Shown: positions 13,206 through 36,896, counted from the first letter of the stretch. The stretch: DNA of 64,000 nucleotides from an uncultured Planctomycetia bacterium (GCA_964497315.1 CAZCCH010000002.1:17519-81518); one strand, 5' to 3'. Notes: a model not told the origin generated them from the sequence alone. Made by a program: numbers and translations.

Positions 13206-14096
13206 TTATAAAGCCATAACTGCTCTTAACATGCCACTGCGCGCCCTTGGATTTTGCTTCACCTCCTCCCATGCAGGCCGTATCGGTTTCTTGGTAAGTA
13301 TCTCTACAACTCCTAGTTGTGAAAATTTTTTAAATCTTTGCTTTACAATCCTGTCTTCTAAGGAATGAAAACTAATTATGCAAACACGCGCTCCGGGTTT
13401 TAAGAATTTAGATATCTTATCTAACCCAGCCTCTAATGCTGCTAATTCTTGATTGACGGCTATCCTAAGTGCTTGAAATGTCCTAGTTGCAGGATGAATC
13501 TTTCCCCGTCTGGAACCTCTGTATGGAATTGAGCGCATTATTAAATCCCTTAGCTGAATTGTCGAATCAATGGGGGCTATCTTTCTTTGCTGAACTATTT
13601 TTCTTGCTATGCGCCTGTGCCATCTTTCCTGGCCAAATTTAAACAATATCTGATCTAATTCTTGTTCTGTTAGATAATTTACGAAATCATAGGCACATAA
13701 TTTTGTTTTTAATCTATCGAAGCGCATATCCAGGGGGCTTTCTTGTTGAAAGCTAAAACCACGTTCTGGATCCTCTAGTTGCTCTGAAGAAAGTCCCAAG
13801 TCAAAGAGTGCACCATCTATTTTTTGTATGCTTAGTTTTTCTAAAACTTTATCAACGTTACGAAAATCTTCATGGATAAACTCACAACGTTTAGAAAACT
13901 TTGATAATTTTTTTCTTGTTCTCTCTAGGGCATTTTTATCTCTATCTATACCAATAAGCTTACCTTCCTCACCAATAAGCTCTAGAATCCTTTCACTATG
14001 CCCACCGCTGCCTATCGTGCAGTCGACGATTATATTGCCCTTCTTTGGATTTAGTATGCTTAAGATTTCTTTACACATAACTGGTATATGACCCAT
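13206..14096 (-). CDS. rsmH: 16S rRNA (cytosine1402-N4)-methyltransferase RsmH (MraW)
   Basis: 296 aa with the GHIPVM start, the CTIGSGGHS SAM-binding motif and an FDLGLSS motif. Confidence 0.9.
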   Translation of the reverse strand: MGHIPVMCKEILSILNPKKGNIIVDCTIGSGGHSERILELIGEEGKLIGIDRDKNALERTRKKLSKFSKRCEFIHEDFRNVDKVLEKLSIQKIDGALFDLGLSSEQLEDPERGFSFQQESPLDMRFDRLKTKLCAYDFVNYLTEQELDQILFKFGQERWHRRIARKIVQQRKIAPIDSTIQLRDLIMRSIPYRGSRRGKIHPATRTFQALRIAVNQELAALEAGLDKISKFLKPGARVCIISFHSLEDRIVKQRFKKFSQLGVVEILTKKPIRPAWEEVKQNPRARSGMLRAVMAL

Positions 14097-14764: not shown

Positions 14765-14870
14765 GAGAAAAATTCAACTTTTTTTTGTGTATACTATATA
14801 GTGTGGTCTTTGGGAAGTGTTATAGGAATATTTTGTGGTGGGGTGAAAAAAAATAATTACAGAAAATAAA

Positions 14871-15211
14871 AAGGAGTAGGTTCGATAAGCCGAATTCTGT
14901 CGTGGATGGTCATCTGTCTTGCCTCAAACGTTACCATTTGAGGTCGTCTCTTTTAATAAAGAGGTAGCAGCCTACCCGGAACTTTTCTAACGGTGCGGGT
15001 AGCACCTCGTCCCCTATTTGGCCTTGCTCCGCGTAGAGATTGCCTCGTTTCACCCAAATTTGCAAAGCAAATTCGACTCGTCTCTGTGGCTCTAATCCGT
15101 CCGCCACTCTTTGTGGCGGAGGTGGGTGTTACCCACTACGCTACCCTGTGGAGTCCGGACTTTCCTCCCTACCCCTTATGGGGTAAGGCGACCATCTCAA
15201 ACCTACTCCTT
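14871..15211 (-). ncRNA. rnpB: RNase P RNA (bacterial type A)
   Basis: The minus strand contains the universally conserved GGAGGAAAGTCCGGACTCCACAGGG (P4 region). It also has GGAGCAAGGCCAAATAGGGG, GGGTAGGCTGC and GACCATCCACGACAGAATTCGGCTTATCG, which match the E. coli rnpB conserved blocks. A P1 helix forms between AAGGAGTAGGTTT at the 5' end and GAACCTACTCCTT at the 3' end. Confidence 0.85.
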
Positions 15212-15652
15212 AGATAAATTTATAGGTGCATTTGAAGTTGCTTTTTTCTTGGTTTCTTTTATTGCCTTAGTTGCCAGTTTATCTGCACCTTTATTTTTAT
15301 CTCTTGTTATATGAAAGATCCTAACTTCTTCAAAACCCTTAGCAAGATAAAGTATCTTTTCATACAAAGGTTTTAAATTAGAATTCTTAACCTTGTATTC
15401 TTTGTTAAGTTGTTTAGCCAATAATTCACTGTCTGTATTAATATGAACTGACTCTGCTTTTAATGTGCTTGCTTCTTCTAATGCGCATATTGCAGCAGTA
15501 TATTCAGCGATGTTGTTTGTTGTCTCTCCTACATACTTTGAGATATTTTTTAATACTTGACCTGAAGTGCTACATACAATTACCCCAATGCCTGCAGGGC
15601 CTGGGTTTCCAGAGGCTGCTCCATCTATATAAATAGTAAGTTTTTTTGAAGT
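15203..15652 (-). CDS. rnhA: Ribonuclease HI
   Basis: TIYIDGAASGNPGPAGIGVIV...TNNIAEYTAAI...HINTDSELLAKQL...RDKNKGADKLA is a canonical RNase H type 1 fold with DEDD catalytic residues. The ORF track starts it at 15712, but a start at MTSKK (15652) better fits the family and avoids overlap with the upstream gene. The stop codon lies inside the rnpB P1 helix. Confidence 0.8.
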   Translation of the reverse strand, partial: TSKKLTIYIDGAASGNPGPAGIGVIVCSTSGQVLKNISKYVGETTNNIAEYTAAICALEEASTLKAESVHINTDSELLAKQLNKEYKVKNSNLKPLYEKILYLAKGFEEVRIFHITRDKNKGADKLATKAIKETKKKATSNAPINLSKE

Positions 15653-15654
15653 CA

Positions 15655-16404
15655 TTAACTGCTCGCTGGTTGTTCGGTATCGTCTTTTTCTAGATATAAA
15701 ATCCTGGTGCAATTCTCACATATAATTATACTATTGCGTAGTTTTATTTCATTAATAACCTGAGGCGGTAAATTCATATGACACCCCTGACAGGCATGCC
15801 CTTCTGCTGAAACCAAAGCAAGACCATCTTTATTCTTCAATACCCTCTCATATTTAGCAAGAATGGATTTTTCGATCCCAGGAGTCATCGTTTCCCTTTG
15901 AGCATTAAGCTGCGTAAGGTTTTTTTCGATATCAGCAAGCTTAAGCTTTACTTCTTCTCCCTTGACCTTTAATTCTTTTTCCTTTTCTGTTACGCCTTGC
16001 TTTACATCATCTATTTCTTTTTTAGCTTTATCCTGCTCTTCCATCATCAGAAGGATTTCTTCTTCAAGGACAGAATTGTCTGCCTTTAGACCTTCTATCT
16101 CTTTTTGCATTGCAGTGTATTCTTTATTCGTCTTTATCTGAAAAAGTTGGGTTTGTAACTTTTTAATATTCTCTTCTTTTGAGGCTAAATCAATTTCCTT
16201 ATCTTTTCTTTTTACCTGCAAGGCCTTTAAATCATCCTCTGCATCTTTAATCTTTAGCTTTTCTTCTTCTGCGATTTCCTTCAATTTCTCAAACATTCTA
16301 GGTATCTCTTCTTTCTCTCTACACAATGCATAAATCTGCGTATCTATTTTCTGTAAGTTTATGAGAGTACCTATTTGAGATGAATAGTCAATTTGTTCTT
16401 TCAT
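15655..16404 (-). CDS. Zinc-ribbon coiled-coil protein (COG1579/DUF164-like)
   Basis: 249 aa with a long coiled-coil followed by a C-terminal CxxC...CxxC zinc ribbon (HACQGCHMNLP...CENC). Confidence 0.7.
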   Translation of the reverse strand: MKEQIDYSSQIGTLINLQKIDTQIYALCREKEEIPRMFEKLKEIAEEEKLKIKDAEDDLKALQVKRKDKEIDLASKEENIKKLQTQLFQIKTNKEYTAMQKEIEGLKADNSVLEEEILLMMEEQDKAKKEIDDVKQGVTEKEKELKVKGEEVKLKLADIEKNLTQLNAQRETMTPGIEKSILAKYERVLKNKDGLALVSAEGHACQGCHMNLPPQVINEIKLRNSIIICENCTRILYLEKDDTEQPASS

Positions 16405-16508: not shown

Positions 16509-16583
16509 TGGTGGGCCCAGAAGGATTTGAACCTCCGACCAAGTGATTATGAGTCACCTGCGCTACCGCTGCGCTATGGGCCC
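16509..16583 (-). tRNA. tRNA-Met, elongator type (anticodon CAT); tRNA-Ile2(LAU) cannot be excluded
   Basis: The reverse complement folds as GGGCCCA/TGGGCCC acceptor, GCGC D-stem, GGTGA-CTCATAA-TCACT anticodon arm and GGAGG-TTCAAAT-CCTTC T-arm, with encoded CCA. It has no 3xGC anticodon stem, so it is not the initiator. Confidence 0.85.
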
Positions 16584-16640
16584 ATTTAGTAGTGTTTCAG
16601 TAAAATTGGATTATACCAGATTTAGGTAGGGTTGTAAAGG
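16547..16640 (-). repeat. Direct repeat copy 1: tRNA-Met 5' half plus its promoter, duplicated at 21478-21562
   Basis: About 90% identity to 21478-21562. The second copy lacks 11 nt (CCGCTGCGCTA) in the D-arm. Confidence 0.85.
16610..16638 (-). promoter_or_regulatory. Sigma70 promoter of the tRNA-Met/tRNA-Val operon
   Basis: The minus strand reads TTTACA (16638-16633), a 17-nt spacer, then TATAAT (16615-16610), about 25 nt upstream of the tRNA-Met 5' end. Confidence 0.7.
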
Positions 16641-16647
16641 GGGATTT

Positions 16648-16932
16648 TTAGTGTCTTTTGGTGTTTTCGTAGTTCTTTCTTAAAATCCTGATAAATCTAA
16701 TAAGAAGATAAAGAGGGTAATAAATAAATGCTAGCCTGACACCAGCACCAAAAAGCAAAGCAGACATTTTATTATCAAAATAAGGATATGGGTTTTTTAA
16801 AAAGATCTTTGTGAAGTATTCAAAGTGATGTCCTGTTGGAACAGCTATCCATACAAGTGCAATGCTAACAACCATAGCAGCAAAAACAATATAAGCTTCT
16901 CTTTTTATGATTCTTTTTAGTTTTTTATCCAT
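16648..16932 (-). CDS. Small hypothetical membrane protein (two predicted TM helices)
   Basis: 94-aa ORF with host-like low GC and two hydrophobic segments. I recognise no family. Confidence 0.45.
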   Translation of the reverse strand: MDKKLKRIIKREAYIVFAAMVVSIALVWIAVPTGHHFEYFTKIFLKNPYPYFDNKMSALLFGAGVRLAFIYYPLYLLIRFIRILRKNYENTKRH

Positions 16933-16991: not shown

Positions 16992-19900
16992 TTATGCTCC
17001 TGTTTTTGTTTCTTTATGGGACTTTAGCTCTTCAAGGAGTTGTAGTGTTTCTTCTGTGATATAGTGAATTTCATCAATAAATGCAGGTAGAGTTCTTAGC
17101 TCTGTAGCAATAAGTCTAATTAAGATTAAACCTCTTCTGCGTAATTCTTCGGCTGCTTGCTCAATAGTTTCACAAAGAATAACAAGCTCATATCCTAGGG
17201 CTGCATTTAATATATCAACATCTCCTTTAAGATGTGCAGTGTCTCCTGTTATGGCAATTGTTGTACCTTTAGGTAGTTCTAGGTCTTGTAGTGCAGGTAG
17301 AATGTTTTCACCAAGGGGTGATTCTATTATTAGACCTGTGGATAGGTTTTTAAAGTCACCAAATAGGCTTTCAGCGAAGCGACTCAACAAGCCTTTTATC
17401 TTAGAAACCAATAACTCTGTTACCTTATTACATGCTTCATCAATACCTTCTAGCTCCCTATACCGTTCAGCCTCAGCTCCGTCCATGCCCATAGATGTCA
17501 GTATCGTTTTTATCTGTGGATATCTTTTTCTGACTTCCTTTGCTAATTTCGGACCTGCCTCGCTATCAATTTTACCGGTTTCTTCATCTAGCATATTTAA
17601 ATCTGCTACCATTAAGTGAGGAAGTATTTCTAATTCATCTAATTTCCTTAATGCATCTTGTGGGTTAACTGTCTCAATAACCTTATATCCTTCTTTAGTA
17701 AAACCTCTTACTAATCTCTCTCTCTGATCTCCATCATCTTCTACTAAAAGAATTCTTATAGGTTGTGCTCCATCCTGCTCAGTGAAGCGGGGTCTTTCTC
17801 CAGCTAACCGCTGTTCCGACCTTTCTATGCTGGCGAAAGGTCCATATTCTACATCTAACGGATTTACCTTACCTTTTATCTCACTAAATCTGGTCTCATT
17901 TTCTTCTCTTGGTACTTTTATGGATGGGGGTTCGTTGTTAGGAAAAGGTAAGGGCCAGATGAACCCAAGGTCGTAGAATAATTGCCTTGCCTCATCAGGC
18001 ATAAGGTATTTTAAATATACATATGCTTGAGAATCACCGCCTCCTTTTACACACTGACCGGAAAAGAATTCTGGGACAAAACTCCTCAATCCAGAGGCCA
18101 AAAGTACCATGTCGTTAACTACTATGGCATGAGAGAGCGACGTATATGCAGACCCAAAATGCCTATTATCTTTTGAAGTCTCGTATATAACTTCCAATAA
18201 ACGTCTGAACTTATCTGGGTATTTTTTAGATGATAACGCAATGCAATCGTGAAGTATTTCGTGAAGAATAATCCAGTCAATGTCAATTCCGCCTACCACA
18301 ACAACCCTTTGAAAGGGTCGTCCAAATTCCTTTTCTAAATACTCAAATGACTCCTTATTATGGGTATCGTCTCTGTTTATATATACCGCGGTACTAATAA
18401 TACCCATGGCGTCATATTTTGACAATAACCGCAGAATTTCCTTACAAATTGTTTCGTCTACAATCACCATTAGTCCTGGCTCCAAAAAACCCTCCCTAAC
18501 AATTCCTGTCGGCAAAAACTCCTCAGCCGCAAACAACCTTCTTGCCTTAGTAGTGCTGTGCATTCGCTCGCCGGTTTTTAAATGGTCCTGTCCAGAGCTA
18601 TTACTTTCTGAAAACCTGGCTTCTGCTTCTCGTGCCCTCTCTATTTTTTCATTATCATTCTGCTCAGTGAAGCGGGCCCTGCAGACAAATAATCGCCATT
18701 TGTCTAAAGATATTTCCGGAACTTCAACTATGGGCCTTTCACTATCAGTGTCATTTTCAGTCCTTTCTTTAAACCAGATGCTGCCAAGGACATGGTCTAT
18801 CACCGGTTCTATAGGTACCTCTACCCTTTCAGATTCATTTTCAGGTGAGAAAACTACTGCAGTAGAAATACCTCGATCTTGTTTGTTTCTTAACCAGGTA
18901 ACTACAGTTTGTTTTCTATTATATTCATCACTGGCCATCTCATTTAAATGCTCCACAAGAGACTTCACCAAGTCTACCTCGTGATACTCTACGCCTTCCT
19001 CCTCTATCAATAGCTCTTTAAAAACCTGTTCGGTAGTGGCATCTATAGTCATTCCCAACTCCGTTCTCCTTTTAAAAGCCGCCTTAACGTACTCCATTAC
19101 CAAATCAGGATCTATACCATCATCATCTGCCAATCTTCTTCTAAAATTCTGCAGATAAAACGCGAAGTTCACAATCTCTGCTAAGCTTGGCCTATCAATC
19201 TCTGCCTTATGTAAGGCTCTCCTAATCTTCATTAGTTCGTCTAAGCGTTCAGCTTCTATATCCCATTCTCCATCTAATACATCTTCGAATGATTCTTTGG
19301 CGCGGACATTGCAGGCCTGAACCATTCCCCATGCTGCCTTCATTCTTACTGAAGAATGATTACTTTTATCTTTAAAGATTTCCTCCATGGCTTCATAGCC
19401 ATCATCCTCAAAACGGGCTAACGTATATGCAGCGTGCACATGTTTAGAAGAAGGTGTTAAAAGATGCCCTCTCATAAACTGTACTATTTCTTGAGCTATC
19501 TCCCTCTCTCTCCTGAGCATGGTTAAGGCCTCTGCAGCAAAAAGGGCTACATTTGCATTCCGGCCCACAGCTGCCCTTTTTAAGGCTTCCAGGGAACTGG
19601 GGTCACCTATATAACCTAAGGCTTCAGCTAGCCTGTAACGAAAGTCATCGATTCTTTCAGGCTTGGGCGTATCAGGTTCGTAAGAAGAAATGAGCGCTTC
19701 ATTCAGATGAGGTGCTACTGCAACGCCCTTTCTGACAAAAGAGGACATTGCCTCATGTTGAACATGCGCACTCCTATGGGCCAAGCACCTAAGCAATAAT
19801 CTGAGGGCTTCTTGGTCATCATATCCAGCTACAGTTCTCACAGCTGACACTAATGTGTCTGAATCGCCAGCACCTTCTGCTACAAGAGCTGCAATTGCCA

Positions 19901-21128
19901 ACTCTCGTTCACCATCCTGCTCAGTGAAGCGGGCGGGGGATTTGGTGAAATCTAACATATCATGCGCCTTCGGTGCTGGCGCCTTATCTTTATATCCCAC
20001 AATTCCCTTAAGATAAAACCAACCGTCGCAGCGATCAAGCCCATCTTGGACATGAGTCCAATTACCGCTACGCCCATACCTTTCTCTCTTTATTTTGGTC
20101 AGACCCTTCAGAATACCCTTCAGCGTATTCCCGTTACCTAAAGGTGCAAAATTCTCTCGGAGCATATTATATAATAATTCCGCTGGAATGTGTGTTTCGT
20201 CCTTAGGGGCTGCCTGACGTAATCTCTCAACCTCTGATCTGTCGATCAGGCCCAGCAAAAATAATCCTCTCAATGTATAAATCGCTGTGCTTGCGCTGCG
20301 CTTACACTCATCAAAGTCTAAATCTGCCCCATAACAGTCAGAAAAAGTCCTCATGACAAAAATGTTTGGGGTCTTGGTTGTAATTTCGTAGCCTCTAAAA
20401 TGCTGCTCAGCTATTTTTCTCTGAATATTGACAAGCTCTATTATTTTACCGCGTTCTCTTCTGGAGGGATCGACATACAAGGCGTATATGTCAATTCTAG
20501 AATCTTCCTCACAAATACCAATGGTCTGTTCAAAAACATAGGGTGCTTCTGCCTTTAATTTTCTGGTGGCGAAATACGCAAAGCTATCTATCGGCATACG
20601 AACCCAATTTGTCTTAAGCAACCTCTCTAAGGGTGCGACTCTCAGACGAATTATAGCAGGTTCGGCATGCCAATACAGCAACACGATATCCTGATCGTCT
20701 AATTCCTTTTCTTCTTGTAATTCCCTTAATGCTTCTCTGACATCCTTGCCCGGCCTTACGGCCAATTCTGCCTTGGGGTTTAACGATTTGTATAGCTTTG
20801 AGCCACGGCCCCCTAACCAAAAACTCGCCTCTACTCTACCTTCCAAAATTGCTTTCTTCTCCCCTAAACTCTCAGCCGTGATAGTGGGGGGATGTTGAGG
20901 TGGACTTGTAGAGTTTTCAATTTTTTGCTCTAGCTGTTCTCCCTGGTTTGGCCGATCTCCTTCCGTAAACCTTGCAGCTAGTTCTCTTGTAAGCTCTTTA
21001 TCTTTTGCTGTGGTATCAGGCCTGAGGGTCTCTTTGGAAGGGGATGCAAGAATATAGTCTACCCCTATCAGTGACATTGTAAATGCCACAAGTAGACATA
21101 ATGATATTATTTTCTTAGTATAGTTCAT
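16992..21128 (-). CDS. Giant multi-domain protein of unknown function. It has an N-terminal signal or anchor, a possible GNAT-like module, PBS-lyase/HEAT repeats, an HExxH-containing module and a C-terminal CheY-like receiver domain plus a conserved about 130-aa C-terminal domain.
   Basis: 1378-aa uninterrupted ORF with GC about 50-53%, against about 40% in the flanking DNA. Hydrophobic N-terminus (KKIISLCLLVAFTMSLIG). HEAT-like repeats (EALGYIGDPSSLEALKRAA). HEILH motif. REC-like signature IRILLVEDDG...MVADLNM...KTILTS. The motif [AP]RFTEQDG recurs three to four times in-frame. Confidence 0.85.
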   Translation of the reverse strand: MNYTKKIISLCLLVAFTMSLIGVDYILASPSKETLRPDTTAKDKELTRELAARFTEGDRPNQGEQLEQKIENSTSPPQHPPTITAESLGEKKAILEGRVEASFWLGGRGSKLYKSLNPKAELAVRPGKDVREALRELQEEKELDDQDIVLLYWHAEPAIIRLRVAPLERLLKTNWVRMPIDSFAYFATRKLKAEAPYVFEQTIGICEEDSRIDIYALYVDPSRRERGKIIELVNIQRKIAEQHFRGYEITTKTPNIFVMRTFSDCYGADLDFDECKRSASTAIYTLRGLFLLGLIDRSEVERLRQAAPKDETHIPAELLYNMLRENFAPLGNGNTLKGILKGLTKIKRERYGRSGNWTHVQDGLDRCDGWFYLKGIVGYKDKAPAPKAHDMLDFTKSPARFTEQDGERELAIAALVAEGAGDSDTLVSAVRTVAGYDDQEALRLLLRCLAHRSAHVQHEAMSSFVRKGVAVAPHLNEALISSYEPDTPKPERIDDFRYRLAEALGYIGDPSSLEALKRAAVGRNANVALFAAEALTMLRREREIAQEIVQFMRGHLLTPSSKHVHAAYTLARFEDDGYEAMEEIFKDKSNHSSVRMKAAWGMVQACNVRAKESFEDVLDGEWDIEAERLDELMKIRRALHKAEIDRPSLAEIVNFAFYLQNFRRRLADDDGIDPDLVMEYVKAAFKRRTELGMTIDATTEQVFKELLIEEEGVEYHEVDLVKSLVEHLNEMASDEYNRKQTVVTWLRNKQDRGISTAVVFSPENESERVEVPIEPVIDHVLGSIWFKERTENDTDSERPIVEVPEISLDKWRLFVCRARFTEQNDNEKIERAREAEARFSESNSSGQDHLKTGERMHSTTKARRLFAAEEFLPTGIVREGFLEPGLMVIVDETICKEILRLLSKYDAMGIISTAVYINRDDTHNKESFEYLEKEFGRPFQRVVVVGGIDIDWIILHEILHDCIALSSKKYPDKFRRLLEVIYETSKDNRHFGSAYTSLSHAIVVNDMVLLASGLRSFVPEFFSGQCVKGGGDSQAYVYLKYLMPDEARQLFYDLGFIWPLPFPNNEPPSIKVPREENETRFSEIKGKVNPLDVEYGPFASIERSEQRLAGERPRFTEQDGAQPIRILLVEDDGDQRERLVRGFTKEGYKVIETVNPQDALRKLDELEILPHLMVADLNMLDEETGKIDSEAGPKLAKEVRKRYPQIKTILTSMGMDGAEAERYRELEGIDEACNKVTELLVSKIKGLLSRFAESLFGDFKNLSTGLIIESPLGENILPALQDLELPKGTTIAITGDTAHLKGDVDILNAALGYELVILCETIEQAAEELRRRGLILIRLIATELRTLPAFIDEIHYITEETLQLLEELKSHKETKTGA
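17771..17791 (-). repeat. Intragenic 21-bp direct repeat encoding PRFTEQDG (copy 1 of 3)
   Basis: CATCCTGCTCAGTGAAGCGGG is identical to 19913-19933 and differs by one nucleotide from 18657-18677. Confidence 0.8.
18657..18677 (-). repeat. Intragenic 21-bp direct repeat encoding RARFTEQ (copy 2 of 3)
   Basis: CATTCTGCTCAGTGAAGCGGG matches the other two copies at 20 of 21 positions. Confidence 0.8.
19913..19933 (-). repeat. Intragenic 21-bp direct repeat encoding ARFTEQDG (copy 3 of 3)
   Basis: CATCCTGCTCAGTGAAGCGGG is identical to copy 1. Confidence 0.8.
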
Positions 21129-21201
21129 AGAAATGGGATATCCTGCCTTTGTCTTAAGTTAAAATAAAGTATAGCATAAGATTACCCCAAATGCAAGGCT
21201 A

Positions 21202-21260
21202 AAAATCTAGATTTTGTTTTTATTAACAATATTGAGATATAGTGTGTTAATGGGTGGGGC
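21202..21260 (-). promoter_or_regulatory. Conserved upstream module P1 of the 1378-aa gene: putative sigma70 promoter plus perfect 14-bp palindrome AAAATCTAGATTTT
   Basis: A block of about 55 bp (ATCTAGATTTTGTTTTTATTAACAATATTGAGATATAGTGTGTTAATGGGTGGG) is conserved almost identically upstream of the 858-aa gene at 24291-24345. In gene orientation it reads TTAACA, then about 18 nt, then TTAATA, followed by the palindrome. Confidence 0.5.
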
Positions 21261-21477: not shown

Positions 21478-21562
21478 TTTATGAGTCACCTGCGCTATGG
21501 GCCCAGTTAATAGGGTTTCAGTGAAATTGAATTATACCAGATTTAGGTGGGGTTGTAAAGGC
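21478..21562 (-). repeat. Direct repeat copy 2: truncated pseudo-tRNA-Met (5' half to the anticodon loop, D-arm deletion) plus an intact copy of the tRNA promoter
   Basis: It retains TTTACA-17-TATAAT (21559-21531) and GGGCCCATAGCGCAGGTGACTCATAA. Sequence diverges after the anticodon loop. The 3' half, T-arm and CCA are absent. Confidence 0.85.
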
Positions 21563-21631
21563 GGAAATATTGCCTGTGGTAAGAAAAATCCATTTGCTTT
21601 TCTTGCTAAAAAGAGATAGGGTGTAGGCGGT

Positions 21632-24208
21632 TTATATAGCTCTTGCAGCTGCTTCAAAAGCATCCATTAGGCGTCTTTCATCTTTAGGAGGATACTGTAT
21701 GCCTATTGTATCTATCATGGCTTTAAGCCATTGTGCAATAGCTGTATAGTTACGCTCTATAAGGGGTATTATTTCAATATTAGCTATTTGTTTAAGCTTT
21801 TGTGTGGTATAAAGAAGGAATTTTGGTCTGGCATTGGGGAGTTTTTCTTTTATGTATCTAGTTAGTCTATTCACTAATTCTCCTATAGCAGCTATAGTAT
21901 TACCTTCATATTCTTCTAAGCTTACTACAATTGCTCCAGCAGCAAAACGTGCTGCTTCTTTTTTAGTATTGACTAAAAATGCAAGAGGTGCTTCAGTGAA
22001 GTGTGCTCCTAAAATAGCTAGTTCCTTAGCATCTGTGCAGTCTAGGATACCAACATTTGGTCTTGAGATGTTTGGCGTTGCTTTGTATTGGAAGTCTATT
22101 TTGTTTAGGGTGTTTGTTATTTCAGTGAAGCGGGAAGATATGTGTTCCGAAGCTGCTACTCCAGCAAAGAAATCAAGCACCTTAGAGCGGCTATTTGGAT
22201 GTTGCTGTCCAGGTATCTCATCTTCTCTTCCAAGTATCCACTTAGCAAAGGCATCTGCAAGGCTGAATGCTCTTCCTTGCTTTACAGCAGCTTCAGGAAG
22301 AAGTTCACTTGCATAGTCTTGCATGTAATAAGGAACTCCCTCTCTGGAGTAATCACCTGATAAAATTGCTCCTGCCAACTGCACATCTTCTGGGACTACA
22401 CCGCTTCCTTCATTCCAAATATGAAAGCCTATTCTACAGGCAAAATTTTCCGGTGTCATGCCTTTATAAACATCTGCTGTTCTTGAGCTGGGAGGGTAGA
22501 GCCGTCGTTCTCCAGGCTTATATGGAACTAAAGCTAATCGGCTTACAAAATATGTATTAATTCTTCCTACAATATCTTGAAGTGGTTTCGTTTCATCATC
22601 AGAAAGACCGGCTTCAGCCGCAGCCTGTGGGACATAAAACACTCCAAAAGGATTCCTGGCGATATCCGCTAAGTTCTGTGCTGAAGCTTGGTTAAATCCT
22701 TCACAATCTTCAATGGCATCAATTGCCCCAGTTGCACGAGTAGGTGATTCGGCCATTAGTGCTGCCACGGCATCCCGTAAAGCAGTGCGGTCACCTTCAG
22801 CAACTTCAATCCCTTCTCTTTTAGTAAAATCAGAAATAACTCTACGTACCAAAGAGGCTGTATTCGGTTCATGTTGTTCTAGGGTGGTGTAGCTTCCTTC
22901 TGCAAAGCGGGTAGGGGTCACATCAATCCATTCAGTTGTGTCAAACGGCTGACTGCCTTCCTCCCGACCAAGATAAATATGGAAACCTACACCAGCCCCC
23001 CTTGTTGATACACTTAAATCCCCGGACACAAACTCTGATGGTGATTCTTTAGAAAAACCTACGCTTATATCTCCGCAATGTTTGATTTCACCTCTTTGTA
23101 ATTCCCCTTTAACCTTATCAGCATTTGCTAATATTCTAAGAAAATCTTCTCGATACGTTGTAAATAATAAACTAGTTGGATCTAAGCTAAAAAAAGCTAC
23201 ACCGTCATCATCTAGCTGTTCTCCAAACCGTTTATCTGGGTAATTAACACTAAATCCTACATCTGGTACATCAGGATTGAAAGCCTGCCGGATTTGAACC
23301 ACAATTCTAGTTCTATTAAAATTTATCCAAGCCCTTGGACCATAGAATTCACGTCCTCCAATCCTCTCGATCTCCTCTAATATTCTGGTAGCTACTGCTA
23401 CTTGCACCTCAGGTGATAGCCTTTCAGCTGGTTTAGCTTCAGGAGGGGTTTGCTCGGACTGAGCACCAGCAAGTTCTTTAATAAAGTCATCAGCTATTGC
23501 CATTCTTTCAGCATCAAGATCAGGTGTGCTACGTAGAGCCCTTAAAGTAGCTAAAGCTTTTTCTTTCTGGCGCAGTTCAAGTTGGACTACTGCCAAGTGC
23601 AACCTAGAATCAACAACCACATTCATTGACTCAGAATGCGATGAGCTCCTAGCAACTTCAATAGCCTTCTCAAAAGCATCAGCAGCTCTTTGTGAGTCAT
23701 TAGATTCTGCATGAATTCTACCAATGCATCTATTGGCTTCCGCAAGAGCAAATATGAGCTTTGGGCTCAATCTGTCCTCTCCAAACAACCGACTACCTAA
23801 TTCGTCCGCTGCAGTTAAGGCTTCTAGGGCTTCTTCATTGTCCTGATATTCCATATAACGTCCTTCTTTTGCTCTAAAAAGAAGGCGTCCCCTTGTAAAG
23901 TGGGCCTCCATAAGATGTGGTTCAGAAAGATCTCCCATATTAATAGCTTCATCAAAGAGCTCTATCGCTCTTCCATAGGATTCTACTCCTTCACTAGCTA
24001 AATCTTTGGCCATATCAAAGTAAGCTTCTGCATCTCGTGCTTTCCCATCATCCGCCCCTAATGCTTCTTCTCTAAACCTAGCTGCTATAGGAGTTTTCCT
24101 TGTCATAGGAGTCCTTAAAGCCCAGACATACTGTGACATTGTGGTATTAATAAACATACATACCACTAATAGTGCTATTATTTTGGTTAGGGATTTGTGG
24201 GATAACAT
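21632..24208 (-). CDS. Large secreted-type protein of unknown function, paralogous in its C-terminal domain and motifs to the 1378-aa protein. It has an N-terminal signal peptide and a TPR-like N-terminal region.
   Basis: 858-aa ORF with GC about 55%. Signal-like N-terminus (KIIALLVVCMFINTTMSQYVWA). RF[TA]E motifs are present (ARFREE, TRFAEG, SSRFTEITN). The C-terminal roughly 120 aa align with the 1378-aa protein C-terminus: SRFTEITNTLNK...ILGAHF aligns with SRFAESLFGDFKNL...ALGYEL. Confidence 0.85.
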   Translation of the reverse strand: MLSHKSLTKIIALLVVCMFINTTMSQYVWALRTPMTRKTPIAARFREEALGADDGKARDAEAYFDMAKDLASEGVESYGRAIELFDEAINMGDLSEPHLMEAHFTRGRLLFRAKEGRYMEYQDNEEALEALTAADELGSRLFGEDRLSPKLIFALAEANRCIGRIHAESNDSQRAADAFEKAIEVARSSSHSESMNVVVDSRLHLAVVQLELRQKEKALATLRALRSTPDLDAERMAIADDFIKELAGAQSEQTPPEAKPAERLSPEVQVAVATRILEEIERIGGREFYGPRAWINFNRTRIVVQIRQAFNPDVPDVGFSVNYPDKRFGEQLDDDGVAFFSLDPTSLLFTTYREDFLRILANADKVKGELQRGEIKHCGDISVGFSKESPSEFVSGDLSVSTRGAGVGFHIYLGREEGSQPFDTTEWIDVTPTRFAEGSYTTLEQHEPNTASLVRRVISDFTKREGIEVAEGDRTALRDAVAALMAESPTRATGAIDAIEDCEGFNQASAQNLADIARNPFGVFYVPQAAAEAGLSDDETKPLQDIVGRINTYFVSRLALVPYKPGERRLYPPSSRTADVYKGMTPENFACRIGFHIWNEGSGVVPEDVQLAGAILSGDYSREGVPYYMQDYASELLPEAAVKQGRAFSLADAFAKWILGREDEIPGQQHPNSRSKVLDFFAGVAASEHISSRFTEITNTLNKIDFQYKATPNISRPNVGILDCTDAKELAILGAHFTEAPLAFLVNTKKEAARFAAGAIVVSLEEYEGNTIAAIGELVNRLTRYIKEKLPNARPKFLLYTTQKLKQIANIEIIPLIERNYTAIAQWLKAMIDTIGIQYPPKDERRLMDAFEAAARAI

Positions 24209-24290
24209 ACTACCTGCCTTTGTCTTATAGAGGTTTTTGAGTTATTTTTAGTAAGTATACCATAAGATTAGCAAAAAAGCAAGGGTAAAT

Positions 24291-24345
24291 ATCTAGATTT
24301 TGTTTTTATTAACAACATTGAGATGTAGTGTGTTAAGGGGTGGGA
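24291..24345 (-). promoter_or_regulatory. Conserved upstream module P2 of the 858-aa gene, homologous to P1 with an ATCTAGAT palindrome core
   Basis: See the P1 entry. Identity with 21206-21260 is over 90%. Confidence 0.5.
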
Positions 24346-29851: not shown

Positions 29852-31774
29852 TTATTCAAATGATATGAGTAATTTTATTTTCTGTTCTGACTGATCTATT
29901 TGTTCTGAAAAGGCAAAAAATGGGGCAGACTCTTCAATGCATTGCAAGGCAAGATCCCCTGCAAGTGTATTATCTTCTTTGATAATTACAGGCTTTTCCT
30001 TTAGGTTTCCATCAGGCTCAATTACAAAAGACAATAATACTTCACCTTTTGTTGTTGAGTCTGAATAGTTTTTTCTCAATGTATGAAAGATCTTTTTCCT
30101 TACAGAAGTACAATAATCCGGTTGCTGTAATTTTGCTAATGTAGATTCTAAAAGCGCCTCCCTTCCTCCTTTGACAGGTGCTTGGGCAGGTGTTTTCTTG
30201 GAAGGCTTCTTTTTATCCTTAGACCTAACAAGGCTACGAATACCTCCATTGATACTAGCTTCTTTTTCAGTTAGAGGAATACCTGTTAAAGATTTATCAC
30301 CAGTTATAACATGTGGTGTAAGAAGTATGACTACTTCCTTTTTTGTCTTTGTGTCATCTATGCTTTGAAACATTTTTCCCAACACTGGTATATTAGATAA
30401 AAAAGGAATTCTTTTGGTAGTTTTGTCTTGTTTATCCTTAATCAATCCTGCGATTATTATGCTATTGCCATCTTTGACTAGGACAGTAGTCTCCGCCTCT
30501 GTAGTTGAAACAACAGGAATTTGATTGCCTTCTGCAGTAGTATAGGGAGTACCTGTAGAGCTAACCTCCGGCCTTATCTTCATTGTAACAAAACCCTCTT
30601 CATTTATTGTTGGGGTAACATAGAGTTTTACACCTACATCAACAAATGTCACCTCTTCAGCTGTGGTGGTGGCCTCGTCGCTGGAGACCACAGACTTTGT
30701 AGCGTAAGGTTCTCTTGTACCTATCAATATCTTTGATTCCTGATTATTTACTGCTGTTATCTTTGGAGCAGACAAAGTATTAACATCGCCTATCGTGCTA
30801 AGCAATTCTAAAAACGCAGAATACTCATCTTCAGCGCCTGCTGTGGTACCGCCAGTCATGGTCCCCACCTTTAACACGCCGCTCTTACTTAAATCCAGGC
30901 TTAACTCTTGCCTGAAACTAACATACTTTGTAACGAAATAATCCCAGTCAATGCCCATCTGGAAGCGATCTGATAAATTGACCTCTAAAATTTTTGCTTC
31001 AATAAGTACCTGTAGATCTTTCTGGTCAATTTCTTTTAGGACACTTGCAATCTCTTCTAATTTTACTGGGGTATCTTTTACTACAATCTTATTTGTACGC
31101 TCATCAATGCTGGCATCTCCTAAGTTTTTGGTAAGCATCTCTGTTACCTTAGACAAAATATCTTCTGCCTTTGAATATTTTAAGGTAAATACCTTTGTTT
31201 GAGTCAATATGTCTATTTGGCTTAAAATCTGTTCCATTTCGGCTATCCTAGAGGGCACATCATCTATCATAATGGTATTTGATGCTTCATCTGCCACTAC
31301 TCTTCCTAAGTCAGTCTTAATTTGGCTAAGGGCCTTGCTGGCATCTACTGCGCTTGCATGTTTAAGTTTTATAATCTTAAGTTGCTTTTTACTATGGAAG
31401 CGTTCCCCATATAAAAGCTCATAGTCTCTATCTGTCATTACGTTTATTATGTTACCCCTTTTTTCATATGCAAGGCTGTTAGCAGCTAGAATAAGCTCTA
31501 AGGCATCCCATACATCCACATCCTTTAAAAATATTGTTACCCGCCCTGTAACATTTCTACCTGCTACTATGTTTAGGCCACTTTTCATAGAGATAATCTT
31601 TAAGACATCCAAGATGTCCATTCCCTTTATATCTAGTGAGATCTTCACTTCTGAAACCGGCCTTGTCTGTTTGGGTAGAGGAATCACCTCTTGAGAAAAG
31701 GCTACATTAGCCATAAAGGTAAATATTACAATGCAAATTGTTATTTTAATATTCCACTTATTCATTTCATCCAC
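29852..31774 (-). CDS. gspD: Type II secretion system secretin (GspD) with a C-terminal TonB-C-like extension
   Basis: 640 aa with a signal peptide and N0/N1-type domains. The secretin C-domain reads GNSIIIAGLIKD...IPFLSNIPVLGKMF...VVILLTPHVI. After a Lys-rich linker the last roughly 110 aa (GEVLLSFVIEPDGNLKEKPVIIKEDNTLAGDLALQCIEESAPFFAF) match the TonB C-terminal domain pattern. Confidence 0.8.
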   Translation of the reverse strand: MDEMNKWNIKITICIVIFTFMANVAFSQEVIPLPKQTRPVSEVKISLDIKGMDILDVLKIISMKSGLNIVAGRNVTGRVTIFLKDVDVWDALELILAANSLAYEKRGNIINVMTDRDYELLYGERFHSKKQLKIIKLKHASAVDASKALSQIKTDLGRVVADEASNTIMIDDVPSRIAEMEQILSQIDILTQTKVFTLKYSKAEDILSKVTEMLTKNLGDASIDERTNKIVVKDTPVKLEEIASVLKEIDQKDLQVLIEAKILEVNLSDRFQMGIDWDYFVTKYVSFRQELSLDLSKSGVLKVGTMTGGTTAGAEDEYSAFLELLSTIGDVNTLSAPKITAVNNQESKILIGTREPYATKSVVSSDEATTTAEEVTFVDVGVKLYVTPTINEEGFVTMKIRPEVSSTGTPYTTAEGNQIPVVSTTEAETTVLVKDGNSIIIAGLIKDKQDKTTKRIPFLSNIPVLGKMFQSIDDTKTKKEVVILLTPHVITGDKSLTGIPLTEKEASINGGIRSLVRSKDKKKPSKKTPAQAPVKGGREALLESTLAKLQQPDYCTSVRKKIFHTLRKNYSDSTTKGEVLLSFVIEPDGNLKEKPVIIKEDNTLAGDLALQCIEESAPFFAFSEQIDQSEQKIKLLISFE

Positions 31775-31799
31775 CCCCTTGAAAAACTATAAATCTTTT

Positions 31800-32495
31800 T
31801 TATAATGACAAAAATATACTTTGATCCTCAAAGGTAAGTTTAACCCTACCATTTGCTATTTCCTCAACAGTCATATCATTAATGCTATCACCTACTTGTA
31901 AGAAAAAACTCTTATTCGTCTTTGAATCTTCAATTATAGCCTGCTGTGGTTCATCTGTCATAATACCTAGTAGTTTTAAATCTTTAGATAAATCTCCGAT
32001 TTTTATCTTTGGTTCTGTCTTTACTTGCTTGGGTCTTTCTGCAATTAAGGGTTTAAAAAGTTGCCTTGCCTTAATCTGTTCTGAATAATAGCTAAAAGGC
32101 TTCTTCTCTGTTATTAAAGTATCTGTATGTTTAGAGAAATCGGATATTCTCCTTGTTACTAATCCTTCCTGGGTTGTAACCTCCGAAACAGCTGCGAGGT
32201 TTTCCTTTTTAGACTTTGAAAAACGAGCATGGTTTATTGCCAAGCTCAGCAGTGTAATTGCAAACATAATACAGAATGCAACCAATAGTATTTTGTTTGT
32301 AAAAAGATGCCAATCAAAATTTTCTGGGAGTTTTTCAATTCTTGCCGCTTTTTTAGGTGGGCTTTTTTGTTTTTGTTCAGGCTGTGGCTTTGGTTTTGGT
32401 TTAGCAGCTTGGGTTTCTTTAGCCTTGCCTGCAGCTGCCTTTGAACCTTTTATTAATCTCAATAATTTTTCTTCAGGGCTTAAGCTTCTTTCCAT
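31800..32495 (-). CDS. GspB/ExeB-like or PilP/GspC-HR-like secretin-interacting protein
   Basis: 231 aa. Basic Pro/Lys-rich N-terminal region, a single TM segment and a C-terminal beta domain resembling the 62744-63268 product (AII.D...VGD.I.D..V.EI..G.V.L). It lies between the exeA-like gene and the secretin gene. Confidence 0.4.
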   Translation of the reverse strand: MERSLSPEEKLLRLIKGSKAAAGKAKETQAAKPKPKPQPEQKQKSPPKKAARIEKLPENFDWHLFTNKILLVAFCIMFAITLLSLAINHARFSKSKKENLAAVSEVTTQEGLVTRRISDFSKHTDTLITEKKPFSYYSEQIKARQLFKPLIAERPKQVKTEPKIKIGDLSKDLKLLGIMTDEPQQAIIEDSKTNKSFFLQVGDSINDMTVEEIANGRVKLTFEDQSIFLSL

Positions 32496-32516
32496 TTTTG
32501 TATTCTGCCTTTTTGT

Positions 32517-33383
32517 TTAATCTGGTTGGGTCATGACTATGCGTTTATATTGATCTTGATCCCAACCTTGTTTTAACTCTTCTACTATTAAATCTGAAAT
32601 TATCTTCTCATCTACAAAATCCTGTCCTTTCATTACTATTGTCTCAAGGGCATTATGACAAAGTATTGATATCCTGCGCGGATAACCCTGGGTATGTCTG
32701 TATATGAGTTTTACTGCACTCTCTGAGAAAAGTTGCTGACTGCTTCCATAACCTGCCTGGCGCAATCTAAAATTTATCATTTCCTTTGTTTCGTTTTCAT
32801 CTAAAGGATTTATAATATACTTTAGGCTAATTCTATCTACAAAGTTCCTTATCTTTCTAATCCTTGGAAACAGTTCCATCTGAGCCATAAGGACTAACTG
32901 AAGAAGTTTATATTCATTAGTCTCATAGTTAAGTAGGGTCCTTAATGCTTCCAACATAGACGGTTTTAGTTTCTGACCTTCATCAATTAATAACACTATA
33001 GTTTTATTTTCATCAACGCCTTTTTGGAATAGATGCCTTTCTATAGCTTCTTTATAATCTAGGGTTGACCTGTATAAGGGTGTTACCCCAAACATCCTTG
33101 CTAGGCTTGACCAAAATTGGAATTCAGACTTATAGCTGGGATCTAAAATCATATGAAATACAAAATCAGGTTCGCTGTTGAATGCCTGCAGGAGCCTTCT
33201 GGAGAGAGTAGTCTTACCTGTACCAACGTCTCCTAATACAACATTTAAGCCTCTTCTAAGTCTTATTGAGATTTCCAACCTATGGAGTGCGGAATCATGT
33301 CCTGAGGAACGATAGAAAAATTCAGGGTCAGGACTTGTAGAAAAAGGTTCTTTTTCTAGGTTTAATATTTTATAGTAGCTCAT
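32517..33383 (-). CDS. ExeA/GspA-like AAA ATPase, short form lacking the peptidoglycan-binding domain
   Basis: 288 aa with Walker A GDVGTGKTT and Walker B LLIDEGQ. It is in the COG3267 family. Confidence 0.7.
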   Translation of the reverse strand: MSYYKILNLEKEPFSTSPDPEFFYRSSGHDSALHRLEISIRLRRGLNVVLGDVGTGKTTLSRRLLQAFNSEPDFVFHMILDPSYKSEFQFWSSLARMFGVTPLYRSTLDYKEAIERHLFQKGVDENKTIVLLIDEGQKLKPSMLEALRTLLNYETNEYKLLQLVLMAQMELFPRIRKIRNFVDRISLKYIINPLDENETKEMINFRLRQAGYGSSQQLFSESAVKLIYRHTQGYPRRISILCHNALETIVMKGQDFVDEKIISDLIVEELKQGWDQDQYKRIVMTQPD

Positions 33384-33603
33384 TCTTTAAGGTCTCTTTT
33401 ATCTCTTTAATGGATTTCTTCTCCAGTCTTAATTTTCTTATCTTCTTAAGTAATTCCACAGTGGCATCATCAAAATATCTAAAATTAGTCTCATTGCTTC
33501 TTCCGATTTCTTTAATCAAACCTATTTTTAAGTAATACTTTAGTGTATATATAGAGTATCCAGTAAGTCCTGCTAAATCCTTAATTAGATAAATGTTTCG
33601 CAT
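33370..33603 (-). CDS. Mini MerR-family HTH DNA-binding protein
   Basis: 77 aa (IKDLAGLTGYSIYTLKYYLKIGLI is a MerR-type helix-turn-helix). It overlaps the exeA-like start by 14 nt. Confidence 0.55.
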   Translation of the reverse strand: MRNIYLIKDLAGLTGYSIYTLKYYLKIGLIKEIGRSNETNFRYFDDATVELLKKIRKLRLEKKSIKEIKETLKNELL

Positions 33604-33763
33604 AGGCTCTTATTCCTGTACTCTCTAAGTAGATAGTATATAATTATTCTGCTCTCTATGTAGAGAGTGAACTATATTCAAATATAGCAAATTCCTTAGT
33701 AATTGTCAAGTAAAATTTCATAATGAGGTGATTTAAAAGGGGTTAGAAAAATGGAAGGTATTC

Positions 33764-34300
33764 TTAATCAAGGGTAATTTTATTTGCAAGGAGGGTAACT
33801 TTAAGCGAGTCCTTTGTTCCGCTTTTGGCATTTAACTCTAAAAATTCCACTCTAAGTATCTGCTTAGAGTGCTGCAATTTATAAAGAAATTCTACTAGCT
33901 TTTCAATAGAACCCTGAGAATCTATCTCAACTGTATACTTTTTGTAAAAGGCTGACTTTGTCACAGGCAGGGGTTTCATACCAAGAATATGTACATTTGC
34001 TCCTCTTGCGAGGGTTTCGATTTCGCTAAAGAGCTTGGCCATCTGTTCTTCCTGAGAACCCCCCTCTGCTGCCATTATCGCAGAAAGCCCTTGGAATCTT
34101 TGGGTTATCTCCTCTTTCTGTCTTAACAGCCTTAAGCCTTTCTCTAAACTCAATCTTTTTACAGTGACTTCTTTGTTTACCTGTCTCCACTGTGTTATTA
34201 TCGGTTCCAAAATGAAGGCATAAACCAAACTAGTAAACAATAATGCTACAGTACATATAAGTATTAACCGTTCTCTTTTTGAAAGTGTTGGAATCATCAT
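33764..34300 (-). CDS. gspM: T2SS protein GspM / PilO-like
   Basis: 178 aa with an N-terminal TM segment and a coiled-coil region. It sits downstream of gspL in the operon. Confidence 0.55.
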   Translation of the reverse strand: MMIPTLSKRERLILICTVALLFTSLVYAFILEPIITQWRQVNKEVTVKRLSLEKGLRLLRQKEEITQRFQGLSAIMAAEGGSQEEQMAKLFSEIETLARGANVHILGMKPLPVTKSAFYKKYTVEIDSQGSIEKLVEFLYKLQHSKQILRVEFLELNAKSGTKDSLKVTLLANKITLD

Positions 34301-34326
34301 GGTTAATGATCTCTTTGCATGACTTG

Positions 34327-35805: not shown

Positions 35806-35807
35806 TT

Positions 35808-36896
35808 TTATTGCTCCTGCCAGGCTAGTACTTTATACTCACCTTCTTTATCAAACTCTAATACAGCCATTATTTGCTTAAGGGCTCTATCTACCTCAGC
35901 GCGTGCTTCTACCCTGAATGTATCTGATGCTACATCTAACAAGGTTTTTCCTTTATCCCTTAATGCTTGAAGTCTTTGCCATTCAATTGAGGTGGCACCG
36001 AGGTATGGATCAGGTGTCCATTTTTCATCAAGATTTTTGGTTTCAATTATACCTTCTCCCTGCGAGTCCAATATAACCTCTGTGCCTTTTATGAACCATC
36101 TATCATCGCTAGTACCTACTTCTCCATCATTTCCGGTTCTATATTTCACTATTTTTTCAGCTAATTCCGGTAAAGCTTCTCCTATAGCAGCAGATAGAAC
36201 CTCCTCTGGTGCTGTATTTATATTAAGTTTTCCATCTCCGTAGACAGTTATAAAATTAGCAATGTCAGATAAAATCTCCTCACTTACTCCTCTAACTAAG
36301 AGAAGCTCTTCGATGCAGTCAAATGGTGCATTTTTGCAGCTATAAGCAACATCCTGGCTCTGATAATATATATCCTCCGCACCAAAGGAAACTTTTGTAT
36401 CAGGATCAGAACTAACCTGACTATCCTCATCCCGCCAGTCAATGATACTTGCTGCTATTTGCTTTGCTTCTAGTTCTGATGTTCCCTTTACTTTTAAAAA
36501 AGCCTCAAGCAGCTTAAAATCAGCCTTGTTTATATTTATTTTTGATTTTTCATCCATCAAGCCATATAGGGTAACAAATTCCTGTTGCCCTAAAACATCA
36601 TAGCTTACTGTAAATTTCCCTGCACCAAGAGAAAAATCTTTCAATTGTTCGTTATTCGCCCAGGATTCATTTAATGCATCTACTTGGTAAGAAACTTTTT
36701 CTTTTAATTCTTTTTGTTTTTCAAAGGCAGCTCTTTTTAAAGCTGCCTTTGCCAGATTAAATGCTTTTAACCTATCAGAATGAAATCCGGAAATCTTAAC
36801 ATCCATAGATATGCGTTGACCTAAACTCACAGCAAATATAGTTAAGATCGAAAGTATCCAAAGTGATACGATTAAAATAGATCCTCTCTGTCTCAT
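35808..36896 (-). CDS. gspK: T2SS minor pseudopilin GspK
   Basis: 362 aa. N-terminal RGSILIVSLWILSILTIFAV hydrophobic segment, with the size and position expected for GspK. Confidence 0.7.
   Translation of the reverse strand: MRQRGSILIVSLWILSILTIFAVSLGQRISMDVKISGFHSDRLKAFNLAKAALKRAAFEKQKELKEKVSYQVDALNESWANNEQLKDFSLGAGKFTVSYDVLGQQEFVTLYGLMDEKSKININKADFKLLEAFLKVKGTSELEAKQIAASIIDWRDEDSQVSSDPDTKVSFGAEDIYYQSQDVAYSCKNAPFDCIEELLLVRGVSEEILSDIANFITVYGDGKLNINTAPEEVLSAAIGEALPELAEKIVKYRTGNDGEVGTSDDRWFIKGTEVILDSQGEGIIETKNLDEKWTPDPYLGATSIEWQRLQALRDKGKTLLDVASDTFRVEARAEVDRALKQIMAVLEFDKEGEYKVLAWQEQ

Follow-up and report, generated by a model that had tools for sequence, protein, structure and literature searches.

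The bacterial DNA deposited as GCA_964497315.1, an uncultured Planctomycetia bacterium, includes a 64,000-nucleotide (nt) stretch (CAZCCH010000002.1:17519-81518; hereafter the window, to which coordinates refer unless stated otherwise) encoding a 1378-residue mosaic protein, gene1 (16992..21128, minus strand; open reading frame and translation). The open reading frame (ORF) of gene1 carries three near-identical 21-nt direct repeats. They encode copies of a short peptide motif that marks the module boundary in a family of three genes, gene1, gene2 and a 4377-residue giant gene, and blocks of homology within the family start or stop exactly at the motif. The motif is thus classed as a multi-copy, lineage-specific module-junction motif of mosaic Omnitrophota proteins. 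The favored reading, whose chances are judged about even, is that the 21-mers are copies of a module-boundary and probably processing motif, that the coding joint hosts in-frame duplication or exchange of modules, and that these three copies are the youngest or the latest to have been homogenized.

On the plus strand, CATCCTGCTCAGTGAAGCGGG is found at 17771-17791 and 19913-19933 with no mismatches and at 18656-18676 with one mismatch (CATTCTG...), and 0 of 100 dinucleotide-preserving shuffles gave a match. An earlier note on this DNA had described the two exact copies and a third at 20/21 identity; all are present, but the third begins at 18656, one base from the 18657 given there. Successive copies lie 885 and 1257 nt apart, distances divisible by 3, and the three copies share one frame within one ORF, as had been claimed. 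Read on the coding strand, which is the minus strand, the 21-mers are CC CGC TTC ACT GAG CAG G/AAT G and yield (A/P)RFTEQ(D/N) at residues 400, 819, and 1114 of gene1. The peptide RFTEQDG, previously assigned to all three, is encoded at residues 400 and 1114, whereas residue 819 begins RFTEQND. Copies 1 and 3 have 25 of 27 nt in common and no further likeness, and the flanks of the 21-mers are unrelated, which agrees with the earlier description of the surrounding coding sequence. The 21-mers and the 11-14-nt copies of their core all lie on one strand and are direct rather than inverted repeats.

The motif is identified as the module boundary because three sets of breakpoints coincide with it: the start of a block common to gene2 and the giant gene, the end of leader homology, and the limits of 520-residue modules that run from motif to motif. 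Gene2 (858 residues; 21632..24208, minus strand) begins with a leader and ARFRE, continues with TPR repeats, RFAE, and RFTE, and finishes in a C-terminal module that the giant gene also has. Residues 692-858 of gene2 are 86% identical to residues 4211-4377 of the giant protein (blastp), and the corresponding DNA block of 504 nt is 88% identical and extends from CCCGCTTCACTGAA to the stop codon, with no upstream similarity (blastn). This joint (S-RFTE, gene2 residues 692-696; 22121..22134, minus strand) is the exact start of the block. It is also the degenerate copy that the earlier note had placed near 22121, present as TTCAGTGAAGCGGG at 22121-22134 in the upstream gene. That gene had been called a paralogue, but the product of 21632-24208 has no BLASTP similarity to gene1 and is tied to it only by leader architecture, the motif, and approximately 90% identical upstream and downstream non-coding DNA.

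The other two sets of breakpoints involve the giant gene. The leader sequences are MNITNKYLKIISIILLVTFSMSLIGPEFALASSNPSRKTLRP...EMAARFSE in the giant protein and MNYTKKIISLCLLVAFTMSLIGVDYILASPSKETLRP...ELAARFTE in gene1, and nucleotide homology between the two leaders stops exactly at GCTGCAAGGTTTA(CG/GT)GAAG, the first motif copy, ARF(T/S)E. Within the giant protein, the modules at residues 1016-1535 and 1536-2055 are each exactly 520 residues long, 38% identical, and arranged in tandem from motif to motif; they align from their first residue, the R of RFSE, as does a third paralogue at residues 3093-3625. Domain limits from HMMER and Pfam flank the motif copies. The recurring motif is found in linkers between modules, and both junctions that were modeled with AlphaFold2 (AF2) show a low-confidence linker.

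Gene1 itself displays the arrangement clearly. Exhaustive HMMER searches split the protein into independent modules, each with relatives of quite different architecture, in the order hydrophobic leader, module A, HEAT repeats, an unknown module, an HExxHD module, REC, and a C-terminal module; Pfam recognizes only HEAT (residues 495-544) and REC (residues 1126-1225). Module A, which is uncharacterized and conserved (residues ~89-395; 19944..20864, minus strand), is present in other multi-module proteins, with HMMER matches in P0006-P0009, P0011-P0013, P0015, P0018, P0021, and P0026. It ends at or before residue 395, and the HEAT module (residues ~408-640) begins at or after residue 408, with 21-mer copy 1 between them ((A)RFTEQD(G), residues 399-406; 19913..19933, minus strand). 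The AF2 model has a predicted local distance difference test score (pLDDT) below 50 over residues 362-404, a linker that ends at copy 1, after which the first HEAT helix begins. Copy 2, the 20/21 match ((A)RFTEQN(D), residues 818-825; 18656..18676, minus strand), lies at the junction before the HExxHD module, and copy 3 ((P)RFTEQD(G), residues 1113-1120; 17771..17791, minus strand) lies directly before the REC domain (17454..17753, minus strand; Pfam PF00072 and NCBIfam response-regulator matches), where a second linker with pLDDT below 50 over residues 1069-1113 reaches it. Homology limits and AF2 model boundaries thus agree in placing the 21-mers at domain junctions, as the earlier note had proposed. 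The remaining copies in gene1 use other codons or a different third residue. A leader copy, RFTE (residues 53-56, AGG TTT ACG GAA; 20961..20972, minus strand), closes the leader module common with the giant gene and matches the earlier report of an N-terminal RFTE in different codons. RFSE at residues 838-841 (AGG TTT TCA GAA; 18606..18617, minus strand) adds another motif copy to the linker that leads into the HExxHD module, RFSE at residues 1080-1083 (AGA TTT AGT GAG; 17880..17891, minus strand) falls in the disordered linker after that module, and RFAE at residues 1250-1253 (CGC TTC GCT GAA; 17370..17381, minus strand) marks the junction between REC and the C-terminal module.

Across the family the junction motif takes the lineage-specific form [A/S/T/P]-R-F-[T/S/A]-E. 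RF[TSA]E occurs 7 times in gene1, 2 times in gene2 in addition to its leader variant RFRE (and HFTE at residue 736), and 12 times in the giant gene (and HFTE at residue 4255). No copy was found in other ORFs of at least 100 residues in the six frames of the window or in the 10 kb past its end, and the core CCGCTTCNCTGA is confined to the three family genes among 64 loci examined. In gene2, the leader copy is RFRE (residues 44-47, AGG TTT AGA GAA; 24068..24079, minus strand) and the first internal copy is RFAE (residues 434-437, CGC TTT GCA GAA; 22898..22909, minus strand), both from translation. The giant gene, found by walking off the start of the window, lies on the same contig approximately 30 kb from gene1 and directly follows ftsQ, ftsA, and a 111-residue ORF; it contains 12 junction motifs (11 internal), TPR arrays, and a metzincin-like HEILHGLGMQH. 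Its promoter region and leader are homologous to those of gene1. The conserved block of promoter and 5' leader upstream of gene1 (21167..21258, minus strand) is 89% identical to that upstream of gene2 (24253..24344, minus strand), and the region upstream of the giant gene (L061, ~13419-13481) is related. In all three genes the block contains a promoter-like TTGC..-17-TATACT/TATAAT and is 81-89% identical despite unrelated coding sequences, so the family appears to be co-regulated.

How such a motif might work can be framed in two steps. The motif peptide would serve as a junction or processing signal, most likely as a cut site in polyprotein maturation, and in-frame duplication, insertion, or exchange of modules would occur at the joint, or be tolerated only there, since the joint is the only sequence common to otherwise unrelated modules. 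The 21-mers of gene1 would then be the youngest joints, either copied when modules were joined or converted over a short patch, with synonymous sites that have not yet diverged. Several features make processing at the motif plausible. Unrelated modules (HEAT, TPR, REC, and HExxH) share ORFs in this family, and HExxH modules are embedded among them, as HEILHD in gene1 and as HEILHGLGMQH (HExxHxxGxxH, a metzincin-like spacing) in the giant protein. The gene1 version, module C (residues ~864-1066; 17931..18539, minus strand; HMMER matches over residues ~869-1065), is a putative zinc peptidase whose H, E, H, and D residues do not vary across 12 homologues at 25-37% identity, and its AF2 model is a confident fold (pLDDT 80). 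No Pfam peptidase match was obtained for gene1, gene2, or the giant gene. Furthermore, the giant protein has matches to the twin-arginine translocation (Tat) signal model TIGR01409 located 38-42 residues after RFSE, at 18.9 and 20.9 bits in modules M5 and M6 and at 16.6 bits in M9, the last being 0.1 bit below the cut-off of 16.7 bits. One internal twin-arginine match is at residues 1577-1595, and the others are in two paralogous modules. Inside a protein, a Tat-type signal would be workable only once the N terminus of its module had been freed. Cleavage of long Omnitrophota proteins has been suspected, with cut points unknown (10.1101/2023.11.21.568195).

The nucleotides of the joint carry a signal of their own. 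In a genome of 36.8% G+C, the codons of the 21-mer are in the minority (CGC.087, TTC.167, GAG.333, CAG.423), and their combination is expected at a single site with probability 5.7e-4 if codons follow genome usage. On the same usage, three RFTEQ sites would share one codon combination, whichever it is, with probability 6e-4, and still with about 1e-3 when family-wide codon bias is allowed for, which bears out the earlier statement that nucleotide identity exceeds what the peptide needs. The same note had listed synonymous variation in homologous contexts as evidence that would speak for a plain conserved peptide, and the family does vary in this way: other copies differ at the Phe, Glu, and third-residue codons, and the giant gene spells RFTEQ as CGC TTT ACT GAA CAA. 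Since the motif varies synonymously across the family, the peptide rather than the 21-mer is taken to be the conserved unit, and on these comparisons the full 21-mer belongs to gene1 alone.

Part of the joint is nevertheless constrained at wobble positions in family copies generally. Among 19 internal copies the Arg codon is CGC in 15 and CGT in 2 (p = 3e-13 against a genome usage of 8.7%), the wobble base of codon 3 is T in 16, and a pyrimidine closes codon -1 in 17. The first base of codon 3 is A in 10, T in 6, and G in 3, giving T, S, or A, and the Phe and Glu wobbles are free. Leader copies in all three genes read AGG TTT. The old paralogous modules of the giant gene retain the ancestral codon at only 5-29% of synonymous sites (71-95% randomized), but all three keep CGC and TCT at the joint; with synonymous sites so close to saturation, the codon signal is not residual ancestry. 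Conserved arginines elsewhere in these paralogous modules switch freely between AGR and CGN. Selection for translational accuracy or optimal codons was considered and rejected, as conserved Arg and Thr/Ala/Ser/Pro in core dcw genes do not favor CGY or NCT.

Several observations weigh against the junction and processing reading. The cut sites it proposes are candidates, and the fold predicted for module C has no significant match in the PDB by Foldseek. The lack of homology around the 21-mers rules out that a joint and its module were simply duplicated together in recent time, and a conversion tract of 21 bp would be unusually short. Homogenization within a gene was rejected as an explanation of the codon signal, since copies from the same gene are no more alike at free positions than copies from different genes (permutation p = 0.45), and all four combinations of TTC/TTT with ACT/TCT are present at joints, which favors a site-specific constraint over general homogenization. 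The family-wide wobble constraint (CGC, NCT) is left unexplained by this reading. Finally, protein and metagenome searches returned no relatives by which the joints could be dated: the word-indexed search of 5.8 billion proteins for whole-protein relatives of gene1 matched only gene1 itself, a chimeric motif query drew no protein match, and a metagenome scan with the C-terminal module common to gene2 and the giant gene was likewise empty.

The wobble constraint leaves room for an alternative in which the joint is a nucleic-acid element with the core C-Y-CGC-TTY-DCT-GAR, extended to 21-22 nt in gene1, and peptide conservation is partly a by-product. The element might be a recombination site, at which a dedicated recombination system or one of the host would exchange cassettes in frame, or an RNA or codon-specific signal, such as one for a tRNA-dependent co-translational event, or a site for protein binding. 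The wobble positions at Arg, codon 3, and codon -1 are firmer than a first codon position, their constraint persists in modules whose other synonymous sites are largely randomized, core genes give no hint of a general accuracy effect, and homology breakpoints coincide with the joint. Against this, leader copies encode the same peptide with AGG TTT, the extension GAG CAG GAT GG is not kept in the giant RFTEQ copy, and C is never the first base of codon 3, which excludes Pro and indicates that selection acts on the peptide too. Nor were the expected partners found. Among annotated genes across about 100 kb, none has a Pfam match to a recombinase, integrase, or reverse transcriptase. RNA folding of 81-nt and 33-nt windows at the repeats gave z-scores of -1.1 to -2.4 with no common structure, and neither an antisense or complementary partner nor a reverse-complement copy was found in the window, so that the RNA-level element suggested earlier is not borne out. 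The 21-mer search that the note had advised for other genomes gave 0 matches in genome, metagenome, and viral DNA collections. Population data are also unfavorable: five contigs from different samples and assemblers all carry gene1 at full length, collinear and 100% or 99.99% identical (0-1 single-nucleotide polymorphism), with no rearranged, deletion, or duplication variant, although these are consensus assemblies from which rare variants could escape. The nucleic-acid element is a serious but distinctly less likely account. As for the recombination or shuffling role raised in the earlier note, it is supported as far as the joint is a boundary of module duplication or exchange; deletion or duplication variants were not seen among the five contigs, nor a recombinase among the Pfam-annotated genes.

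The same contigs bear on the idea that recombination between the direct repeats, which according to that note would excise whole modules in frame, produces shorter isoforms as a programmed or frequent form of phase variation. The geometry fits, with direct repeats at spacings that are multiples of 3, but all five contigs retain the intact gene, no shortened relative was returned from the protein collection, and 21 bp is shorter than usual for efficient RecA-dependent recombination; such deletion is very improbable. No more credit than that is due to pure peptide conservation with codon identity left to chance or ordinary codon bias. The motif is clearly under peptide selection and its other copies are synonymously variable, as this explanation expects, but the codons of the 21-mer are rare in this genome and agreement of all three copies is improbable under genome and family frequencies alike. 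At 21 nt, the repeats are as long as a k-mer with which assemblers often start, which raises the prospect that de Bruijn graphs with k = 21 chimerically joined different genes at the 21-mer. This is scarcely credible, since separate JGI, ENA, and NCBI assemblies, made independently from several samples, all contain this 4.1-kb gene, with contigs reaching 114.5 kb, and gene1 is a continuous ORF with consistent flanks. A combined proposal, that RF[TS]E joints are real cut points which divide long Omnitrophota ORFs into separate proteins and free Tat signals and that the joint nucleotides C-Y-CGC-TTY-DCT-GAR are selected as well, as a cassette-exchange site or a codon-specific co-translational signal, is rather unlikely. 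The junction and processing reading is retained at the even chances given above.

Other roles for the joint were examined and set aside. A Chi-like site was considered for GAAGCGG, the reverse complement of C-CGC-TTC, which in the 64 kb has 4 plus-strand occurrences, every one in a joint, and 3 minus-strand occurrences, and it shows no genome-wide excess and no orientation bias. A signal like a DNA uptake sequence was suggested by nearby ComP_DUS-like pilins, but the core was found only in the three family genes. By sequence inspection, the joint does not follow the prepilin-peptidase motif G↓FTLIE: R replaces G at -1, Glu stands at +3 instead of +5, and the sequence after it lacks a hydrophobic helix. 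Inspection likewise gives no consistent in-frame start codon past the joint for internal translation. As a separate observation, the sole polymorphism among the five contigs is T>C at position 19559, inside gene1; apart from this site the population is clonal across 7-24 kb.

The neighborhood of gene1 places it phylogenetically. A flanking CT398-like protein shares 41-49% identity with proteins from metagenome-assembled genomes (MAGs) of Candidatus Omnitrophota (some records are labeled Planctomycetia), and the gene order tRNA-Met / tRNA-Val / CT398-like is conserved in Omnitrophota MAGs. Judged by these neighbors, gene1 is encoded in an Omnitrophota genome. No genes rich in RF[TSA]E occur at the same locus in those relatives. 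Downstream of gene2, 21479-21565 is an approximately 91% identical copy of 16547-16644 (minus strand), the tRNA-Met promoter and 5' half of tRNA-Met. The promoter is TTTACA-17-TATAAT, and the downstream copy has an 11-nt deletion and is truncated past the anticodon loop. Direct repeats of about 100 nt thereby bracket gene1 together with a 94-residue ORF (16648-16932), and this bracketing suggests that gene1 came by segmental duplication or insertion beside tRNA-Met.

Other features of the contig were noted in passing. The giant gene begins at L061:13637 (continued in L063), approximately 13 kb beyond the window start, after a dcw cluster (L061, 10914-13700) of mraZ ... murC, murB, ddl, ftsQ, and ftsA followed by the 111-residue ORF; ftsZ was not seen at its usual position in this cluster (L061). 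A bacterial class A RNase P RNA (14869-15209, minus strand; 183 bits) lies between mraZ and an RNase H gene, and its 5' end is overlapped by a few bases by a 169-residue ORF (15203-15712) whose called gene has 150 residues. The window also contains two secretion or pilus clusters, at 29852-41689 and 54570-63920. An operon like those of type II secretion systems, with a secretin, homologues of GspE, F, G, J, and K, and PilM/N/O-like proteins, lies just upstream of the stretch with cvpA, NIF3, dnaG, rpoD, and gene2. The other cluster resembles those of type IV pili, and some of its pilins match ComP_DUS weakly.

Junction motifs of similar design were seen in other lineages. At L060 (GCA_964583365.1, CAZOWS010000290.1; 5351-15529), three tandem genes of 1209, 1074, and 1121 residues each encode a signal peptide and then HALAPQSxF, one of the three repeats ALAPQSEF internally at a fusion junction, and two genes for CHAT (caspase-like) proteases lie directly upstream. 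The post-signal part of P0009 begins ALAPQSEF and corresponds to residues 552-1209 of P0007, a 660-residue block begun by the internal ALAPQSEF. By analogy, this is a comparable leader and junction-motif system with a candidate protease. The 1315-residue P0017 (L059, 2548-6495), which has an HExxHD module, contains GGIDLR(R/K/D)I three times, the last at its C terminus, and P0010 ends likewise. The codons of the ALAPQSEF and P0017 GGIDLR junction motifs vary. Many of the homologous multi-module proteins, namely P0006, P0007, P0009, P0013, P0015, P0021, and P0022, end in -AA or -FA (e.g., ...GVAA, ...EDAA, ...EQAA, ...LQTFA), which may be a common C-terminal signal or degron.

Omnitrophota and related uncultured bacteria encode very long multi-domain proteins, which might act whole or after being cut. 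A motif that bounds modules, follows the leader, and precedes Tat-type signals provides the first concrete candidate points for cutting or reshuffling, and it gives a rule for splitting long ORFs before structure prediction. Homology breakpoints at the joint show how bacterial mosaic proteins can be built in frame from modules. Wobble conservation at the joint, if functional, would mean that selection acts on the nucleotides of a linker, which is rarely seen, and should cutting and nucleotide selection both hold, the organism would have a dedicated joint at which to build and rebuild polyproteins out of a library of modules.

Known systems resemble this one in part. Shufflon sfx sites, found inside pilV of R64, are inverted repeats with the adjacent tyrosine recombinase Rci (PMC11852207). 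They too are short DNA repeats within an ORF at the junction of constant and alternative segments, where rearrangement keeps the frame, but the repeats of gene1 are direct only and lack both an accompanying recombinase match and variants in the consensus contigs. Chi sites, DNA uptake sequences, and repetitive extragenic palindromic (REP) elements are recognized by genome-wide over-representation and strand bias, neither of which was seen for GAAGCGG; the core is confined to the three family genes among the 64 loci. In antigenic-variation loci such as Borrelia vlsE, 17-bp direct repeats flank cassettes, so that short identical direct repeats again bound exchangeable coding segments. The vlsE cassettes are homologous and have a silent donor array, whereas the modules here are unrelated and no donor array was found.

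Processing at linker sites is familiar from viral polyproteins and from multifunctional-autoprocessing repeats-in-toxin (MARTX) toxins, which are cut by their own cysteine protease domain. The family resembles these in joining unrelated modules in one ORF through flexible linkers with a recurring short motif and in embedding protease-like modules; it differs in that cutting at the motif is a prediction and RF[TS]E is not among known protease sites. Long Omnitrophota proteins match the family in lineage, in their N-terminal hydrophobic leader, and in TPR, HEAT, and peptidase content, but those belong to a class above 30,000 residues as compared with 1378, 858, and 4377 residues here, and the preprint describing them reports neither cut points nor a junction motif (10.1101/2023.11.21.568195).

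The closest analogues are the demarcation motifs of polymorphic toxins, VENN in CdiA and PxxxxDPxGL in Rhs proteins, at which recombination or deletion fuses orphan modules in frame (PMC3150448). Pfam and NCBIfam searches of gene1, gene2, and the giant gene gave no VENN, Rhs/YD, two-partner secretion, type VI secretion, or toxin domains, only HEAT, TPR, REC, and the Tat signal. No immunity gene or orphan cassette was seen in about 100 kb, and no motif-bearing orphan fragment in the window or the examined flanks; gene1 is followed only by the 94-residue ORF, which resembles a membrane protein. The essential likeness to contact-dependent inhibition (CDI) and Rhs systems is a short peptide with conserved DNA at the exact start or stop of homology, as is found here at CCCGCTTCACTGAA and at ARF(T/S)E. 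The differences are that the modules are HEAT, TPR, REC, and HExxH rather than toxins and that, instead of setting off a C-terminal toxin only, the motif occurs up to 12 times per protein and bounds every module.

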